Counted from the first letter of the stretch, positions 14,358 through 21,859 are shown. The stretch is 64,000 nucleotides of DNA from an uncultured Vibrio sp. (GCA_965140755.1 OZ223360.1:13280-77279), one strand, 5' to 3'. Notes: a model not told the origin generated them from the sequence alone. Translations and numbers: made by a program.

Positions 14358-15074
14358 ATGGGAAGAAGTTTTGAAGTGCGCAAAGCCTCTATGGCGAAAA
14401 CTGCAGGCGCAAAAATTAAAGTTTATTCCAAATACGGTAAAGAAATTTACATGTGTGCGAAAAATGGCGGTGCAGACCCAGACATGAACTTGTCTCTTAA
14501 GCACCTGATCGCCAAAGCGAAAAAAGACCAAGTTCCTGCACACGTTATCGACAAAGCGATTGATAAAGCGAGTGGCGGTGGCGGTGAAGATTACGCTCCT
14601 GCACGCTACGAAGGCTTTGGCCCTGGCGGTACCAGTGTGATTGTTGACTGTCTAACTGACAACGGCAACCGTACGTTCCAAGATGTACGCCAATGCTTTG
14701 TTAAAGTCGGTGCGAAAATTGGTGTTGAAGGTTCTGTATCTCACATGTTCGATCACCAAGCGGTATTCCAGTTCAAAGGCGATGATGATGAAATCATACT
14801 GGAAACGCTAATGATGGATGATGTCGATGTTACTGACGTTGAGCTGGAAGACGGCGTGATTACCGTATTTGCACCTCACACCGAGTTCTTCAAGACTAAA
14901 ACGGCGCTTAACGGCGCATTCCCAGATCTAACGATTGATGTGGAAGAAATTACTTTCGTTCCTCAAACTCAAACGCCAATCGCGGGTGAAGATGCAGAGA
15001 AATTCCAGAAGTTCTTAGATCTTCTAGATGACTGTGATGATGTTCAGCAGGTTTACCACAACGCTGAGATGTAA
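14358..15074 (+). CDS. YebC/PmpR (TACO1) family protein
   Basis: [54 protein letters not shown]. Confidence 0.93.
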
Positions 15075-15094: not shown

Positions 15095-15122
15095 AAAAGG
15101 CTTCCTTCGGGAAGCCTTTTTT
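15095..15122 (+). terminator. Intrinsic terminator after yebC-like gene
   Basis: AAAAGGCTTCC-ttcg-GGAAGCCTTTTTT, cUUCGg tetraloop. Confidence 0.85.
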
Positions 15123-15172: not shown

Positions 15173-15222
15173 ACCATTTATCCGTGTCAGTACCCATTCA
15201 CTCCGCAAAAAGACCGTTGGTC
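15173..15222 (+). promoter_or_regulatory. Three LytTR-type direct repeats at 20-bp period (putative operator of the downstream operon)
   Basis: ACCATTTATC (15173), CCCATTCACT (15193), ACCGTTGGTC (15213). The third is one mismatch from the AlgR box ACCGTTCGTC. Confidence 0.55.
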
Positions 15223-15296
15223 GCATACCTCGGCAGGGGAGGGCAGCTTTCCTTAATCTGAAACCATCTAACCACTTTTGATCAAGGACAGTTACC

Positions 15297-15965
15297 ATGA
15301 TGGTTTTCAATTCACACTTCGCTTCAAGATCCAAATTATTCACTACCTTGTTTATTGTTCTCGCATTGAGCAGTAGTTTCGCATTTGCCAACCCAACGGA
15401 ATCATTACTTCACCGGTTTCATCAAGCTGAACAAGGCAATTCAGACATGGTAGATAGCGTTCATGACGAGTTATCTACTCTGCTTGAGCAGCAAGGAGCA
15501 ACGCCTTTGACCTTGGTATATCTCGGTTGTACCCAAACACTGCAAGGTCGGGATGCGTTTATGCCTTGGAATAAGATGAAGTTCACTGAGCGAGGGCTCG
15601 CGACGATACAAAAAGGTTTGGATTTAATGGCCCACCAGCCACTACCCATTCAAGAGCAGCAGCGCTTACAAGGCTTACCTGAATACCTGCTAGCAACTGC
15701 GATGGCTGCGACGACTTATACTGCGCTGCCTGATATGTTCAACCAGTTCGAGCGAGGTTATGAGCTGTACCTTGCTTTGTTCAACGACCCAAGCTTCCGC
15801 CAACAGTCTTTTTCCTCCACCGCATGGATTTACCGTTACGCAATTGAGGCCGCTTTGCGCGCCGATGATACAACGCAGGCCAAAGCTTGGTTAGCGGAGA
15901 TGGAGCGCTTAGGTTATGACAATGTTGAAACGCAAGGCGCCAAGACACTGCTCGCGAAACATTAA
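15297..15965 (+). CDS. Secreted alpha-helical (TPR-like) protein of unknown function, first gene of the export operon
   Basis: Sec signal ending AFA/N; helical pattern YLGCTQTLQGRDAFMPWNKMKFTERGLATIQKGL. Confidence 0.75.
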   Translation: MMVFNSHFASRSKLFTTLFIVLALSSSFAFANPTESLLHRFHQAEQGNSDMVDSVHDELSTLLEQQGATPLTLVYLGCTQTLQGRDAFMPWNKMKFTERGLATIQKGLDLMAHQPLPIQEQQRLQGLPEYLLATAMAATTYTALPDMFNQFERGYELYLALFNDPSFRQQSFSSTAWIYRYAIEAALRADDTTQAKAWLAEMERLGYDNVETQGAKTLLAKH

Positions 15966-15974
15966 GGAACCGTT

Positions 15975-16673
15975 ATGATCACTTTCAATCAACTCAGTCG
16001 TGATTATGTGCTAGGAAACCAGACGGTTCATGCTCTGCGAAAAGTGTCAGGGGAAGTGTTTGCCGGAGAGATGCTGGCGCTGTGTGGCCCTTCTGGCTCG
16101 GGCAAAAGTACACTGTTGAATATTCTTGGCATGCTGGATACGCATTATCACGGGCAAGTGACCTTTAAAGGAAGCACGTACCCAACTGGACAGATGCAGG
16201 CCGCGAAAATGCGCCGTGAAAAGCTCGGTTTTGTATTCCAAAAATTCAATTTAGTACCAGTGATGACGGCGTTAGAGAATGTGGCCTATCCGCTGCATCT
16301 CAACGGTTTTTCCAAAGCTGAACAAACCAGGCTCGCGAGAAAAATGCTTGAACATGTGGGTCTTGAGGAATGCATTCATCATATGCCAGATAACTTGTCG
16401 GGTGGCCAGCAGCAACGTGTCGCTATTGCGCGTGCTTTGGTCCACAAACCGGCACTAGTGATTGCAGATGAACCCACCGCGAGTCTGGATAGCCAAAGCG
16501 CTAACAAGGTGATCGACATTATGAAAGGATTAGGGCACGAAATGGGCACCACCTTTATTATCGCGACCCACGACCCACGAATGGCATCCCGCTGTGATCG
16601 CACCATTGAGTTAGTGGACGGAAAGATTACTCATACTCATCAAAGTGTTGAGGAGGTTTCATGGGCAAGTTAA
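15975..16673 (+). CDS. ABC transporter ATP-binding protein (LolD/MacB-like)
   Basis: Walker A GPSGSGKST, GFVFQKFNL, LSGGQQQRVAIARAL, ADEPTASLD, ATHD. Confidence 0.92.
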   Translation: MITFNQLSRDYVLGNQTVHALRKVSGEVFAGEMLALCGPSGSGKSTLLNILGMLDTHYHGQVTFKGSTYPTGQMQAAKMRREKLGFVFQKFNLVPVMTALENVAYPLHLNGFSKAEQTRLARKMLEHVGLEECIHHMPDNLSGGQQQRVAIARALVHKPALVIADEPTASLDSQSANKVIDIMKGLGHEMGTTFIIATHDPRMASRCDRTIELVDGKITHTHQSVEEVSWAS

Positions 16674-17929
16674 TCCCAGTTTCTATTCGTCTCACGTGGC
16701 TGAACTTACAACGTAACCGGCGCCGCAGCCTGCTTTCGATACTTATTGTCGCGATTGCTGTCTTTGCCCTGGCGAGTGCGGGCGGCTTTGGCCTTTACAC
16801 CTATGATAGCTTGAAAGAGTCTACCGCGCGTGATACCGGACACTTAACCCTAACAACGCCAGGATACTTCACAAAAGAAGAAGAGGTGTCACTTAGTAAT
16901 GGACTGAGCCACGCTGATGATATTACCAACCTACTGATAGGTATTAATGAAGTACGAGGAGTACAACCGCGTGTGGAGTTCAGCGGATTGATTTCCAACG
17001 GTACCAAGTCAGCGATTTTCATCGGTATGGGCGTGAATGATCGAGAGTTCGATATGAAAGGGCCATTTCTGGATGTACGAGAAGGGCAAACGCTGTCCAA
17101 TATTCATGCTTCACGTTATGACCCGGCGGAGCCGGAAGTGATGTTAGGTGTGGATCTCGCCAGTAATCTTAGCGTGACAATCGGCGACTGGATCACCTTA
17201 CTGGCGACAACGACAGACGGAGCATTGAACGCATATGATTTCAAGGTTCGTGGTATCTACTCAACAGGCGTTCCAGAGTTAGATAAACGCCAGCTTTATG
17301 TGCATATCGACAGTGCGCAATCTTTGCTTGGTTCAGACAAAGTCAGCACGTTATCGGTCTTCTTATTCGATACCAACTTGACGGCAAAAGTCGAACAACA
17401 AGTGGCGGTGCTGCTTGCAAATCAAAAGCAGTATTTTGCTAACCAAGAAGTTGAAATCACACCATGGCAAGAACGGGCGTTCTTCTATCTCAAAGTCAAG
17501 GGGTTGTACGATCGCATCTTCGGTATCATGGGAGCGGTAATGGCGCTGGTGGTGTTTGTTGCCTTGTTCAATACCATGACCATGTCTGTTACAGAGCGTA
17601 CGCGTGAGATTGGTACTTTATCTGCATTGGGTAGCTATCCGCGCGAAATCATAGCCAGTTTCTTAAAAGAGGCGGGGCTGCTTGCTGTGCTAGGCAGCTT
17701 AATTGGTGGGCTGTTCACCGCCATTGTAACGGTCTTGTTGATGGTGATAGATGTGCAGATGCCGCCACCGCCGGGACGCACAGAAGGATATCCGCTCAAT
17801 ATTTACTTCTCGTGGGAGTTAGTTGCGCTAGCCGGTTTCGCCGTACTGATTATTTGTTTGGCTGCGGCGTTTTTCTCGGCACGCAAGGGGGTGAACAAAC
17901 CCATTACGGAGGCACTGATTTATGTTTAA
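16661..17929 (+). CDS. FtsX/LolE/MacB-type ABC permease
   Basis: N-terminal TM, large periplasmic loop, NTMTMSVTERTREIGTLSALG motif, three C-terminal TMs; overlaps the ATPase gene. Confidence 0.9.
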   Translation: MGKLIPVSIRLTWLNLQRNRRRSLLSILIVAIAVFALASAGGFGLYTYDSLKESTARDTGHLTLTTPGYFTKEEEVSLSNGLSHADDITNLLIGINEVRGVQPRVEFSGLISNGTKSAIFIGMGVNDREFDMKGPFLDVREGQTLSNIHASRYDPAEPEVMLGVDLASNLSVTIGDWITLLATTTDGALNAYDFKVRGIYSTGVPELDKRQLYVHIDSAQSLLGSDKVSTLSVFLFDTNLTAKVEQQVAVLLANQKQYFANQEVEITPWQERAFFYLKVKGLYDRIFGIMGAVMALVVFVALFNTMTMSVTERTREIGTLSALGSYPREIIASFLKEAGLLAVLGSLIGGLFTAIVTVLLMVIDVQMPPPPGRTEGYPLNIYFSWELVALAGFAVLIICLAAAFFSARKGVNKPITEALIYV

Positions 17930-18695
17930 TTTTAAACCAATAACGTCACTGGCGCTGTTAGTCTTCTGCGGGGCGGTTTCCGCGAATGATCAAGCTTTGG
18001 ATACACAACAAGTGGTGCAATTAATGGAAAAAGCCGACAGTTACCGTTTGCAGGTTCAATCTTCCAAAGTGGTCTCTTTAGTGCGCTTGTACCAAGATCA
18101 AGCGTTGGATAAGACCCGCCTATACCACGTTTATACTCGCCCGAACCGCGAGTCACTGGTGGTATTTAAATCGGCTGTCGAAGCGGGGCAAAAAATGCTG
18201 ATGATGGGTGATAATTACTGGCTGCAAATGCCCAAAAGCCGCCGCCCGATTCGCATTACACCAATACAAAAGCTCCTGGGTGAAGCATCGATTGGGGATA
18301 TATCCACGCTCACCTGGAGTCAGGATTATCAAGGTGAGTGGAAAGCGACCGAAACCATCTCCGTGAGCGCTCATAGCATTCCTGCATACCATCTCGTGCT
18401 GACCGCCAAAACCGCAGGAGCGAGTTATCAGAAAATCGATTTGTGGTTAGCAAAACGTGATGGGTTCCCAATCAAAGCAGATCTCTATTTACGCTCTGGC
18501 AAACTCGCTAAGCAAGCTTACTACAGCCGAGCAACGAATAAGGCGCAAGATTACGTCAGCGAGATGACTTTATTAGACAGTATCCAACCAAGCAAAAAGA
18601 CCGTGATTGAGTACCAAGAGATTGTCCCATGGCAGTTGGATAACAAGTTTTACAACCCTAGCTATTTGCCAAAAGTGAATACCTCGCAATTGTAG
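17922..18695 (+). CDS. LolA-like periplasmic outer-membrane lipoprotein-sorting protein
   Basis: Signal peptide; GQKMLMMGDNYWLQMPKSRRPIRI, KLLGEASIGDI, YQKIDLWL, YLRSGKLAK pattern typical of the LolA_like family. Confidence 0.8.
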   Translation: MFNFKPITSLALLVFCGAVSANDQALDTQQVVQLMEKADSYRLQVQSSKVVSLVRLYQDQALDKTRLYHVYTRPNRESLVVFKSAVEAGQKMLMMGDNYWLQMPKSRRPIRITPIQKLLGEASIGDISTLTWSQDYQGEWKATETISVSAHSIPAYHLVLTAKTAGASYQKIDLWLAKRDGFPIKADLYLRSGKLAKQAYYSRATNKAQDYVSEMTLLDSIQPSKKTVIEYQEIVPWQLDNKFYNPSYLPKVNTSQL

Positions 18696-18714
18696 GTTGC
18701 AGAGAGGAGTAAAT

Positions 18715-20022
18715 ATGAGAATCCGGTCTACTCACATCTCGAGCCTGATTGCTTTGGCCTTAGCTTCGCCAGTATTAGCGGATAACGTACTGAGTCTCGA
18801 GTGGGATTGGGCACTGAGCTACGAGACAGCCAAGCAACGCGATACCAACTTTATGGTCTCGCAAGGCCACGCTCACGATTCGCTTGATGCATTACTCGAT
18901 GTGCAAATGAAGTACCAAAACATCAGCGGATTATTCTCATTCTATAGTCAGGGTTTGTATCTGAATGAGTATGACAATAGCAAATGGTGGAAGGAAGCCG
19001 ACCATCAATTTTTCGTTCGAGAGCTTGCTTGGCAGGGCGAATGGAAAGTCCGTAACAATACATTCGATGTTAGCTTAGGTAAATTGCGCGTCGATTGGGG
19101 CGTGGGGTACGCCTATCGTCTTTTGGATTTATTCAAACCCTACCGACAAAATCCAGTTGGTTTGGTGGCAGAAGAAGGGGCGGGTGTTTTTTCTATTTCG
19201 CACTACGATATGGCGGGTGAATGGACTTTGATTGCCACGAACTCTAGTTGGGGGCAACAAGATCGAAGTGCACTGGATAAAGCGGCCGAGCAGCAAGGTG
19301 TTGGCGTGCGTCGTTATTTGCTGGTGGATGACACTGAATACCAATGGATTGGTTATTACGATGATGTTCGGCGCGGCTTACTTGGAGCCAGTGCCATTAC
19401 GGTTTGGGATGAGTCAATTGCCATGCACAGTTCTCTGCTGTGGCAAAAACAGAGTGTCGGTTATCAAATGCTTGATCAGTTGGAACAACCTGTTTCTGTT
19501 GAGAATCAAGGCAGTGCCTTTCAAGCATTGGTTGGACTCAACTGGGCCAATCATGCAGGGCATAACGTAATCGCAGAGTATTGGTATGACAGCCGTGCGT
19601 GGTCAACAAGCGAATGGGAGAAGGCGATGAGCCGTGGTGAGTTACTCTCTCAATCACCCGCAACACGGCTGCTTGCGAGCAGTTACACGCAAGGCTTACA
19701 GCATGCCAATATTGTGCAACATAACCTGATGTTGCATTGGCGCTGGGATATTGAGGCTTGGATAGCGTGGCGTGGTGCGACCAATATGACAACGGATATG
19801 AACTGGTTAGGTGATATTACACCAACACTCGATATCATGATCTCACCACAAGATGGCGGTGCTATTGTCACTCAATGGATAAATTATCAATGGATTGATA
19901 CTGGCGACCAAAGCGTAGAACTGGAAGCTGCTGCACGATTTTTATCTGGAGATAACCAATCTGCATATGCGCAGATCAATGATAAATATATGATTGTCTT
20001 TAATATAAAAGGGAAATTCTAA
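18715..20022 (+). CDS. Putative outer-membrane beta-barrel protein
   Basis: Signal peptide, aromatic-rich amphipathic strands (FDVSLGKLRVDWGVG), C-terminal Phe (IVFNIKGKF). Start placed at ATG 18715 after GAGGAG. Confidence 0.65.
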   Translation: MRIRSTHISSLIALALASPVLADNVLSLEWDWALSYETAKQRDTNFMVSQGHAHDSLDALLDVQMKYQNISGLFSFYSQGLYLNEYDNSKWWKEADHQFFVRELAWQGEWKVRNNTFDVSLGKLRVDWGVGYAYRLLDLFKPYRQNPVGLVAEEGAGVFSISHYDMAGEWTLIATNSSWGQQDRSALDKAAEQQGVGVRRYLLVDDTEYQWIGYYDDVRRGLLGASAITVWDESIAMHSSLLWQKQSVGYQMLDQLEQPVSVENQGSAFQALVGLNWANHAGHNVIAEYWYDSRAWSTSEWEKAMSRGELLSQSPATRLLASSYTQGLQHANIVQHNLMLHWRWDIEAWIAWRGATNMTTDMNWLGDITPTLDIMISPQDGGAIVTQWINYQWIDTGDQSVELEAAARFLSGDNQSAYAQINDKYMIVFNIKGKF

Positions 20023-21045
20023 ATGTTTTCAGGGAAGTCAATGGATAAAGGTGGATGGCGACGAAGTGTGGTGGAGACCTCTTTGTTTTGCCTCTTTATT
20101 GCTGTGATGACGCTTTTTGTATGGGGCGGACCGCTGTACATTCATTTGCTGGTTAGTTTTGGCTTTGGCTATTCGGCTATTTTCTTCTCTTGGTTGATCG
20201 ACAAGCTCTTTCCAACCATCCCGCGTGTAATAGAAATTGCCATTTCGCTCACCGCATGTTTGCTGGTTGGTGTGATCAATGCGCAGTTTTGGCTGGGTGA
20301 TTACTTTGGTATCTCAGGCATGCTCCCTATCGGTTTGATGGGGTTGTTATTCAGTGCAATGTGTTTTTTCTATTTTCACTCGCGAGAGAAGCAGGCCATC
20401 GCACAACGTGAGCTGGAAACCATCAAGCTCGAGAAAGCGGAGCAAGAACGCGCCTTATTACTTAGCCAGTTGAAACAGATGCAAAGTCAGATTGAGCCAC
20501 ATTTCTTGTTTAATACCTTGGCAAACATCAGTGCGTTAATGTCGCAAGACGTGGATAAGGCCAGAAAGATGCTTGATCAGCTAACCGCGTTATTGCGTGC
20601 CACATTAAAAAGTTCACGTGAACAACAAACCACCATCGACAATGAAGCCGCATTGATCGACGCTTACCTTGCGATCCAACAAATTCGCTTAGGTGATCGT
20701 TTGTGTTACTCCATTGAAGTGGAAGAAGAGTTAGGGCAGCTAGAACTGCCACCCATGATGCTGCAACCCTTAATTGAGAATGCCATTATTCATGGTATCG
20801 AACCGAAGCGAGAGGGTGGAGAAGTGAGCCTGCGGATCAAATGTGAAAACCGGATACTTGCAATTGAAGTTCGGGACACTGGGGTTGGGCTGAACCACGC
20901 TAGTCAACATTGTGGATCGGGTATTGGGCTTAGCAACTTAAAGCAGCGAGTTGATGCTCTGTTTGCAGGCAAAGGTAAGGTGTTGATCAGTGAACTTGCC
21001 GAGGGTGGTGTCAGTGTCCGTTTAAGCTGGCCAATTGAGTGGTAA
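20023..21045 (+). CDS. LytS/YehU-type sensor histidine kinase with short multi-TM N-terminus
   Basis: [17 protein letters not shown]-box, [13 protein letters not shown]-box, [14 protein letters not shown]; about four closely spaced TM helices. Confidence 0.92.
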
Positions 21046-21067
21046 TCATAATCAAGGAGTTGGGGAA

Positions 21068-21859
21068 ATGAAGACTGGTATTACGGCCATCATTGCCGAC
21101 GATGAGCCGCTATTAAGGCGGCATTTGGATAAAAGCCTCGCTGATGTATGGCCAGAACTGGAAGTGATCGCAAAAGTCGCGGACGGTGAGCAGGCTTGGA
21201 GTGCCATTCAACATAATCAACCTGATATCGCTTTTCTTGATATTCGCATGCCCGTTTTAGACGGAGTGACTCTGGCGCAAAAAATAAATGGTATGGTGAA
21301 TCCACCTTTGATCGTTTTTGTTACCGCATATGACGATTACGCGATTAAAGCGTTTGAACAAAATGCGGCAGATTACTTACTCAAACCCATCTCGGATGAT
21401 CGTTTGCAAACCACGTGTGAGCGCGTTCAAGCTCGTCTTGCCAATCTAGGGCAACACAACAGCAATATGCAGATGAATAGTTTATTAGATCAGCTTCAGC
21501 AACTATCAGCCCCCAAAACGCCTCAATACCTGCAATGGATTAAAGCGACTCAGGGTGAAGACATTCACTTGATTGCCACATCAGATGTACTCTATTTCAA
21601 GGCAGAAGAGAAATACGTCTCCGTTTATGCGCATCAGGGGCAGGGGGCGGTTATGGAATATCTGATTCGCACATCGTTAAAAGAACTGATGCAACAACTT
21701 AATCCCGAACAGTTTTGGCAAGTGCATCGCTCAACGGTGGTTCAGGTGTGCAAAATCAATAAAGTAAATAAAGATTTTACCGGACGAATGTTTGTCCATA
21801 TTGGTGATAATAAACTGGCGGTCAGCCGAGCCTCGCAAAGTTTATTCAAGGGAATGTAA
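21068..21859 (+). CDS. LytTR-family response regulator
   Basis: Receiver [30 protein letters not shown]; LytTR domain [14 protein letters not shown]. Confidence 0.93.

Follow-up and report, generated by a model that had tools for sequence, protein, structure and literature searches.

The 64,000-nucleotide stretch of DNA analysed here (the window, from an uncultured Vibrio sp., GCA_965140755.1 OZ223360.1:13280-77279) carries seven co-oriented open reading frames (ORFs) at positions 15297-21859, all on the + strand, which will be called g1 to g7 in their 5' to 3' order. Together they encode an ATP-binding cassette (ABC) transporter, two putative periplasmic proteins, a predicted outer-membrane beta-barrel and a two-component system. 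These are known superfamilies in a combination that has no described counterpart, and the cassette is a real, strongly conserved and uncharacterised seven-gene module.

Organization of the gene cluster

The domain content was determined by Pfam and NCBIfam profile searches of the products of the window. The first gene, g1 (15297-15965), encodes a 222-amino acid (aa) protein with a non-lipoprotein signal peptide and without a match in either Pfam or NCBIfam. It is followed by g2 (15975-16673), encoding an ATPase of the MacB/LolD/DevA/FtsE class (ABC_tran PF00005, 118 bits), and by g3 (16661-17929), whose product is a permease with the domains MacB_PCD (PF12704, 57 bits) and FtsX (PF02687, 72 bits). 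The product of g4 (17922-18695) is a LolA_like protein (PF17131), and that of g5 (18715-20022) is the predicted outer-membrane barrel, which belongs to no described family. The cluster closes with a histidine kinase gene, g6 (20023-21045; His_kinase PF06580, 88.6 bits, and HATPase_c PF02518), and a response regulator gene, g7 (21068-21859; Response_reg PF00072, 80.5 bits, and LytTR PF04397, 75.1 bits).

The genes are tightly packed, with junctions from g1 to g7 of +9, -13, -8, +19, 0 (TAAATG) and +22 nt. Translation of g5 starts at the ATG at 18715, which is preceded by a ribosome-binding site (RBS), GAGGAG, and where the alignment of the orthologues also begins. The frame of g7 is open from a TTG at 21035, the ATG at 21068 being the likelier start as judged by its RBS (AAGGAG) and by the onset of the orthologue alignment. 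No convincing terminator was found inside the cluster, where a consensus scanner listed four terminator-like sites against 7.2 expected in shuffles. From the gene packing we infer that the seven genes constitute a single operon. An initial annotation of this DNA had described seven co-oriented, overlapping or closely spaced genes for a secreted helical protein, a LolD-like ATPase, a LolE/FtsX-like permease, a LolA-like carrier, a putative barrel starting at 18715, a histidine kinase and a LytTR regulator; the ORFs, the Pfam and NCBIfam matches, the structural models presented below and the junctions (-13 to +22 nt) agree with this description.

The inner-membrane motor

The best NCBIfam models for g2 were LolD, MacB, DevA, YbbA and FtsE, with near-equal scores that were all under the respective cut-offs. 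Against LolD (TIGR02211) it reached 219 bits, the cut-off being 307.75, which leaves it outside the LolD equivalog. Similarly, g3 scored 92 bits against lolCE (TIGR02212, cut-off 362.45) and falls outside the LolC/LolE equivalog. The hydropathy profile of g3 indicates one transmembrane (TM) helix, a periplasmic domain of about 240 aa (MacB_PCD) and then helices TM2-4 (FtsX), so that it has both the periplasmic core domain and the four-TM FtsX fold by which MacB is recognized. A sequence search of the PDB returned YtrF, LolE, LolC, MacB, LolF and FtsX as its relatives with solved structures. Judging from this topology and from the ATPase clade, g2 and g3 make up a predicted type VII (MacB/LolC-class) ABC machine, and since the cassette holds a single permease gene, g3 presumably works as a homodimer. 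Type VII ABC transporters such as MacB, LolCDE and FtsEX act by mechanotransmission on the periplasmic side, with no movement of the substrate across the inner membrane.

The periplasmic proteins

The only Pfam family matched by g4 is PF17131, with 122.8 bits against a gathering cut-off of 30 bits, and the protein lies outside the LolA family PF03548. Its residues 32-251 align with PDB entry 3buu (NE2245, an uncharacterised protein of the LolA superfamily) with an E value of 2e-23. Because it carries a signal peptide and a lipobox occurs in just 3 of 95 orthologues, g4 is predicted to be soluble in the periplasm, as a LolA-superfamily protein of the PF17131 branch.

All orthologues of g1 have a signal peptide, and in none is there a conserved lipobox. 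Their alignment shows a conserved core motif, GRDAxMPWNKMK, and invariant residues P90, W91 and P145. The AlphaFold2 model of g1, built with 24 orthologues as input, is all-alpha and resembles tetratricopeptide repeat (TPR) proteins, with a predicted local distance difference test (pLDDT) score of 92.0. A Foldseek search with this model gave generic TPR matches only (best E 5e-3) and no specific fold relative. We propose that g1 may be a TPR-like periplasmic scaffold or adaptor. It had been suggested in the initial annotation that the product of g1 could itself be the exported cargo; it is likelier to be a component, as a conserved TPR-like protein is present in every cassette, the distant ones included.

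The outer-membrane barrel

The AlphaFold2 model of g5 (31 homologues) has 18 long strands and a C-terminal Phe, with pLDDT 84.8 and a predicted template modelling (pTM) score of 0.80. This confident model predicts an 18-strand outer-membrane beta-barrel, as had been supposed for the gene at 18715. Its best Foldseek match is AlgE (E 2e-11, template modelling score about 0.5), and next come OccD/OccK/OprD channels (OccD/OccK at 1e-9). In sequence, g5 is outside the alginate-export and OprD families of Pfam; no relatives were found in Pfam or NCBIfam as a whole, nor in the PDB, even with a profile of the family. It is a member of an unnamed barrel family, matched by 264 representative clusters among 1.84 billion.

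Conservation within this family is highest in a stretch, approximately LGKxRLDWGVGYGYRPLDxFKPYRRNPVG, that lies in a long connection after strand 5. Going by the strand order (parity) of the model, this connection should be an extracellular loop able to fold into the lumen, and a helical hairpin that follows strand 14 (residues 298-329) should face the periplasm.

The two-component system and its candidate operator

According to its hydropathy profile, g6 has four N-terminal TM helices joined by short loops and is devoid of a periplasmic domain. They are followed by an H-box of the LytS type (PHFLFN, His160) and by HATPase_c. In g7, the receiver Asp lies within FLDIRMP (Asp69 in the 274-aa numbering). 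The PF06580 core and multi-TM N-terminus of g6, along with the receiver and LytTR domains of g7, place the pair in the LytS/LytTR class. PDB searches with g7 returned matches to the receiver domain only, which are uninformative on its relatedness to AlgR.

Upstream of g1, at 15173-15226 on the + strand, there are three direct repeats with exact 20 bp phasing, starting at 15173 (ACCATT), 15193 (CCCATT) and 15213 (ACCGTTGGTCGCAT). The triple-repeat pattern occurs once in the window and in none of 100 shuffles, and the two-box pattern occurs once in the whole 4.6-Mb genome. In the orthologous Vibrionaceae loci the repeats are found at about -120, -100 and -80 from the start of g1 with the exact 20-bp phasing kept, and when aligned they give the consensus ACCaTTcActCc-N8-ACCaTTcgTCgCAt. 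Of 72 Vibrionaceae loci, 63 have a proximal motif, T[TC][CGT][AG]TCGCA, upstream of g1, as do 4 of 8 distant cassettes, the background being 0.02 per 230 nt, and further distant loci show related phased repeats. The core site described for AlgR is CCGTTCGTC (PMC4064291). The proximal box of the window, CCGTTGGTC, agrees with it at 8 of 9 positions, the Vibrionaceae consensus of this box being ACCaTTcgTCgCAt.

We propose the repeats at 15173-15226 as a candidate operator of g7. Their conservation among the loci, their single occurrence in the genome and their similarity to AlgR boxes argue for an autoregulated cassette. Thus, g6 and g7 can be read as an AlgZ/AlgR-like switch whose main, and perhaps only, target would be its own operon. 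The position of the repeats just upstream of the likely promoter suggests that g7 acts as an activator.

Conservation and genomic context

A match to g5 is present in 15 of 24 other congeneric genomes sampled. One of these is a decayed remnant, with only short fragments of g4, g5 and g7 left (genome G004), and another has frameshifts in g4 and g7 (genome G003). The cassette is dispensable, and some Vibrio lineages are in the course of losing it. All seven genes were found in the same order in each of the 12 examined Vibrio genomes with a full-length g5 match, and in 80 named Vibrio, Aliivibrio and Photobacterium loci the seven genes are colinear everywhere, save where a contig end cuts them.

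A distant homologue of g5 is encoded in 14 of 399 other gammaproteobacterial genomes, each of a different family. The order g1-g2-g3-g4-g5-g6-g7 recurs in these genomes, with the two-component genes divergent in two of them, even though g5 is only 21-28% identical there and g2-g4 37-55%. One gammaproteobacterial genome, G108, has three separate copies of the cassette core. The co-conservation of the seven genes is far beyond chance, and the self-contained, co-conserved unit that had been postulated is recovered both in the Vibrionaceae loci and in the 14 other families.

The surroundings of the cassette are variable. In the window it lies directly downstream of a gene for a YebC/PmpR-family regulator (14358-15074), with a strong hairpin terminator between them, and its downstream neighbour is a convergent DCC1-like gene. 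The hairpin, 3' of yebC at 15095-15122 on the + strand (AAAAGGCTTCC-TTCG-GGAAGCCTTTT followed by TT and the T-run), was read from the sequence by eye and is not listed by the consensus terminator scanner; it may insulate the cassette from upstream transcription. Only in a minority of the 80 loci do yebC, the DCC1-like gene and gltS adjoin the cassette. The gene yebC is next to it in several other Vibrio genomes and also, on the opposite side, in G033, a genome of another family in the same order. The neighbours of the distant cassettes are mutually unrelated and include genes for TetR and LysR regulators, hydrolases, a phosphatidate phosphatase, a phosphoketolase, Fic and a PhzF-like protein. 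No gene for the synthesis of a cargo accompanies the cassette in the flanks of the Vibrionaceae or distant loci examined.

The cassette is also found on Vibrio chromids and on Plesiomonas megaplasmids, where its genes are annotated only as "ABC transporter", "outer membrane lipoprotein-sorting protein", "hypothetical protein", "histidine kinase" and "LytTR family". In Plesiomonas (P. shigelloides plasmid p1, NZ_CP062197.1, and NZ_CP027853.1) it is carried by non-mobilizable megaplasmids of 300-400 kb, beside a nanQ/sodium:solute symporter region, and its barrel is about 44% identical to g5 of the window. No relatives of the Plesiomonas cassette were detected by blastn in 5,426 complete E. coli genomes. 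Given its presence in 15 of the 24 congeners, with one remnant and one frameshifted copy among them, and its heterogeneous neighbours, the cassette is accessory.

A proposed trans-envelope route and its alternatives

We consider it rather probable, though by no means certain, that the seven genes form one autoregulated operon for a full route from the inner to the outer membrane, used by a hydrophobic or amphipathic cargo. This work establishes which genes are present and how their products fold, that the genes and the candidate operator are conserved, and that the cassette differs from Lol and MacAB-TolC; to this the scheme adds contacts between the components, a direction of transport, a type of cargo and an activating sign that we infer. 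Hydrolysis of ATP by g2 in the cytoplasm would drive the large periplasmic domain of g3, and a greasy molecule, embedded in the membrane or present in the periplasm, would be expelled from the outer face of the inner membrane. The cargo would then be taken up or shielded in the periplasm by g4 and received by g5, which would pass it into or across the outer membrane, while g1 would scaffold the periplasmic and outer-membrane parts. The kinase g6 may detect the cargo, membrane stress or the activity of the transporter by means of its membrane helices only, and phosphorylate g7. The regulator would bind the three phased repeats just upstream of the promoter and switch on the whole operon, including g6 and g7 themselves. 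As the cassette is distributed as an accessory element, looks inducible and is linked to no biosynthetic gene, we favour an envelope-active cargo that is exogenous or made conditionally. This points to the removal of an envelope-active compound, or to the conditional export of a lipid-like molecule, over housekeeping envelope biogenesis. A more far-reaching proposal, which we put forward tentatively and with some doubt, is that the cassette represents a distinct, undescribed transporter class, in which a lipid-like cargo would go from a type VII ABC motor to a soluble LolA-fold carrier and be delivered to the surface by the TPR scaffold together with a dedicated 18-strand barrel belonging to a new family, with the flux read in a diderm by an AlgZ-type intramembrane kinase.

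Other explanations must be taken into account. In BceAB-BceS systems the activity of the transporter is signalled to a sensor-less kinase (flux sensing). If the cassette were a sensing and detoxification module of this kind, the ABC transporter would be both the sensor of, and the protector against, an antimicrobial that targets the envelope (a peptide, bile or a detergent) and would signal flux to the kinase, and g4, g5 and g1 would remove or sequester the compound, with no endogenous export. The joint encoding of a type VII ABC transporter and a two-component system would fit, as would the four TM helices of g6 without a periplasmic domain, the predicted autoregulated operon as apparently the sole genomic target of the two-box pattern, the accessory distribution and the reported differential expression of VPA0021 of V. 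parahaemolyticus in macrophage infection (PMC10469919). However, BceB has 10 TM helices and Bce regulators are of the OmpR type, as opposed to the four-TM g3 and the LytTR regulator g7, and Bce modules, which have been described in monoderms, do without a carrier or a barrel. We regard this explanation as rather unlikely, although it overlaps with the best one, from which it differs mainly in the identity of the cargo and the origin of the signal. It also appears improbable that the cassette is a dedicated Lol-type route in which one or a few specific lipoproteins would be extracted by g2/g3, transferred by g4 and finally, by g5, inserted or flipped to the surface. Its architecture does parallel LolCDE/LolF-LolA, the PDB relatives of g3 include LolC, LolE and LolF, and g4 is predicted to be soluble and belongs to the LolA superfamily, as LolA does. 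Nevertheless, no lipoprotein is encoded in the cassette, where g1 and g4 lack a lipobox, no conserved cargo gene lies in the flanks, the thresholds of the LolCE, LolD and LolA families are not reached, canonical lolA, lolB and lolCE are present elsewhere in the genome, and an inducible accessory system would be unusual for lipoprotein sorting.

The uptake channels OccD/OccK/OprD, which are the closest folds to g5 after AlgE, and the fact that substrate-induced operons are typical of catabolic uptake would agree with the opposite direction of transport. A hydrophobic nutrient or signal would be admitted by g5 as through FadL/OprD channels and ferried inward by g4, and the two-component system would induce the genes in the presence of the substrate. 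We know of no type VII (MacB/FtsX) ABC transporter that imports its substrate, and the cassette comprises no periplasmic solute-binding protein of the importer type and has no conserved catabolic genes beside it, all of which makes uptake quite improbable. Finally, AlgE as the best fold match of g5, g1 as a predicted periplasmic TPR protein and the similarity of the candidate operator to AlgR boxes might suggest a port for a polymer of the exopolysaccharide type, where g1 and g5 would work like AlgK/AlgE under an AlgR-like regulator and the ABC/LolA part would have another role. This would be very hard to reconcile with the absence, in or beside any cassette, of a synthase, glycosyltransferase or polymer-modifying gene; moreover, g5 misses the alginate-export family of Pfam, and the TPR and barrel similarities are generic, so we hold it to be highly improbable.

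Several points weigh against the preferred reading of the cassette as a single autoregulated export operon. The likeness of the g5 model to AlgE/OprD is moderate (template modelling score about 0.5) and does not distinguish export from uptake. The putative link between the operator and g7 is drawn from position, conservation and resemblance to the AlgR box. Furthermore, in G033 the cassette is split exactly at the g4/g5 junction: g1-g4, which are followed by yebC, and g5-g6-g7 are about 7 kb apart on the same strand, with a gene for a sodium:solute symporter and other genes in between. This arrangement suggests that the two halves of the cassette can be expressed separately. We also considered whether G033 has a barrel-kinase-regulator module without an ABC part; this was rejected, as g1-g4 are present on that strand too, at a distance of about 7 kb.

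Previous reports and significance

No functional study of the cassette was found in the literature searched, and no characterised system of the same composition came to light, in keeping with the initial annotation, which knew of none. Orthologous components are encoded by VF_A0735 of A. fischeri ES114 and PBPRA0647 of P. profundum; we found no papers on VF_A0734-0738 or PBPRA0647. For PF17131/NE2245/3BUU and for VPA0014-VPA0021 there are passing mentions only, and for TP0789 a proteome list only. VPA0014-VPA0021 is a putative V. parahaemolyticus copy of the cassette, based on its matching composition and on the presence of a barrel orthologue in the species. Of its products, VPA0021 (LytTR regulator), VPA0018 (LolA domain) and VPA0015 (ABC ATPase) have been tied together by a STRING link only (PMC10469919), and VPA0014 appears as an "uncharacterized protein" in a list of the supernatant proteome (PMC12797937).

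How hydrophobic molecules other than lipoproteins and lipopolysaccharide cross the periplasm is an open problem. The best-understood envelope routes are Lol, Lpt, Mla and the tripartite pumps, and the cassette would be a compact fifth design, with an ABC motor, a LolA-fold carrier, a TPR protein and a barrel of its own. As it has its own switch, a clearly defined candidate operator and tractable hosts (V. natriegens, A. fischeri ES114, V. campbellii/harveyi and V. parahaemolyticus, the latter with VPA0014-VPA0021), it is directly testable. A function for it would also provide one for the large unannotated PF17131 branch and for the nameless barrel family. If the cargo is an antimicrobial or derived from a host, the cassette would have a bearing on how marine and host-associated vibrios withstand envelope stress.

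Comparison with known systems

The cassette shares with LolCDE/LolDF-LolA-LolB a separate ATPase, a four-TM permease with a large periplasmic domain and a soluble carrier of the LolA superfamily, and with the LolF systems a single permease gene. However, the receiver is the lipoprotein LolB in the Lol pathway and a predicted 18-strand barrel in the cassette, and the additional TPR-like protein and the dedicated two-component system are present only in the cassette, which is accessory, predicted to be inducible and below the thresholds of the Lol families. Neither LolB nor a lipoprotein gene was found in the cassette. The genome has its own Lol genes elsewhere: lolC and lolE on contig C46, a PF03548 LolA on contig C52 and LolB on contig C43. 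At about 60741-63884 of contig C46, lolC and lolE each extend over two frames (model positions 1-296 and 294-394, and 2-172 and 174-410), with 313-314 bits per fragment, a sign that these essential genes may be frameshifted or wrongly assembled in this draft genome. An identity with the housekeeping Lol pathway was ruled out, as the LolD and LolCE cut-offs are widely missed, g4 is not a PF03548 protein and lolA, lolB and lolCE lie elsewhere. Thus, of the "Lol-like" pathway named in the initial annotation the architecture stands and the assignment to Lol families does not.

The cassette has in common with MacAB-TolC the permease class (MacB_PCD and FtsX) and, presumably, mechanotransmission with the substrate expelled from the periplasmic side. 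In the cassette, ATPase and permease are separate proteins, and instead of the adaptor and the duct there are a LolA-like protein and a porin-like barrel. No HlyD-family adaptor or TolC-type factor was detected by Pfam among the seven products or their immediate neighbours, in line with the earlier view that a dedicated barrel is used instead of LolB or TolC. With no HlyD-type adaptor, TolC-type protein or fused ATPase, MacAB-TolC was ruled out as the identity of the cassette.

The same genome encodes a paralogous five-gene cluster (contig C32, locus L110 4541-9697, minus strand), also uncharacterised, with a PF17131 LolA_like protein (188 bits), two MacB_PCD+FtsX permeases, an ABC ATPase and a 410-aa protein of no family. 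The PDB relatives of its carrier are 9tp6, 3buu, 4z48 and 3bk5. The 410-aa protein ends in a Phe (...RYSF) and is probably another barrel; its similarity to g5 is not significant (BLASTP E 0.087, hhalign probability 2.5%), nor is there any significant pairwise similarity between g4 and the LolA_like protein of this cluster. Unlike the cassette, it has two permease genes, no TPR gene, no two-component system and another gene order.

With regard to regulation, AlgZ of Pseudomonas aeruginosa has a four-TM N-terminus without an obvious sensor domain (PMC4064291). The AlgZ(FimS)/AlgR pair resembles g6/g7 in this kind of sensor-less kinase, in its LytS-type core, in a regulator with receiver and LytTR domains and perhaps in a candidate half-site similar to CCGTTCGTC, but here the pair is encoded inside a transport operon that is apparently its sole target, with three phased repeats 20 bp apart. 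BceAB-BceRS likewise couples a type VII ABC transporter genetically to an intramembrane-sensing kinase and is inducible. It differs in having a 10-TM BceB and an OmpR-type regulator, in belonging to monoderms and in lacking a carrier and a barrel, and a Bce module was ruled out as the identity of the cassette, whose permease has four TM helices and whose regulator is of the LytTR type. The AlgE/OprD barrels have in common with the g5 model the 18-strand fold, but not membership of a Pfam sequence family.

An inner-membrane pump, a protein of the LolA superfamily, a dedicated barrel and an extra periplasmic protein also come together in AmeABCD and other DUF1302-DUF1329-BNR-RND-HAE3 clusters, and deletion of AmeABCD lowers the tolerance of Castellaniella defragrans to hydrophobic monoterpenes (PMC6394551). 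There the pump is a proton-driven resistance-nodulation-division (RND) protein, the barrel is DUF1302, the carrier is DUF1329 and the extra protein is a beta-propeller, and no LytS/LytTR pair is present. As none of the cassette products matches RND, DUF1302 or DUF1329, a cluster of the AmeABCD type was ruled out and the likeness is one of architecture only. AmeABCD is still the closest functional precedent for a pump that is combined with a LolA-superfamily protein and a barrel of its own.

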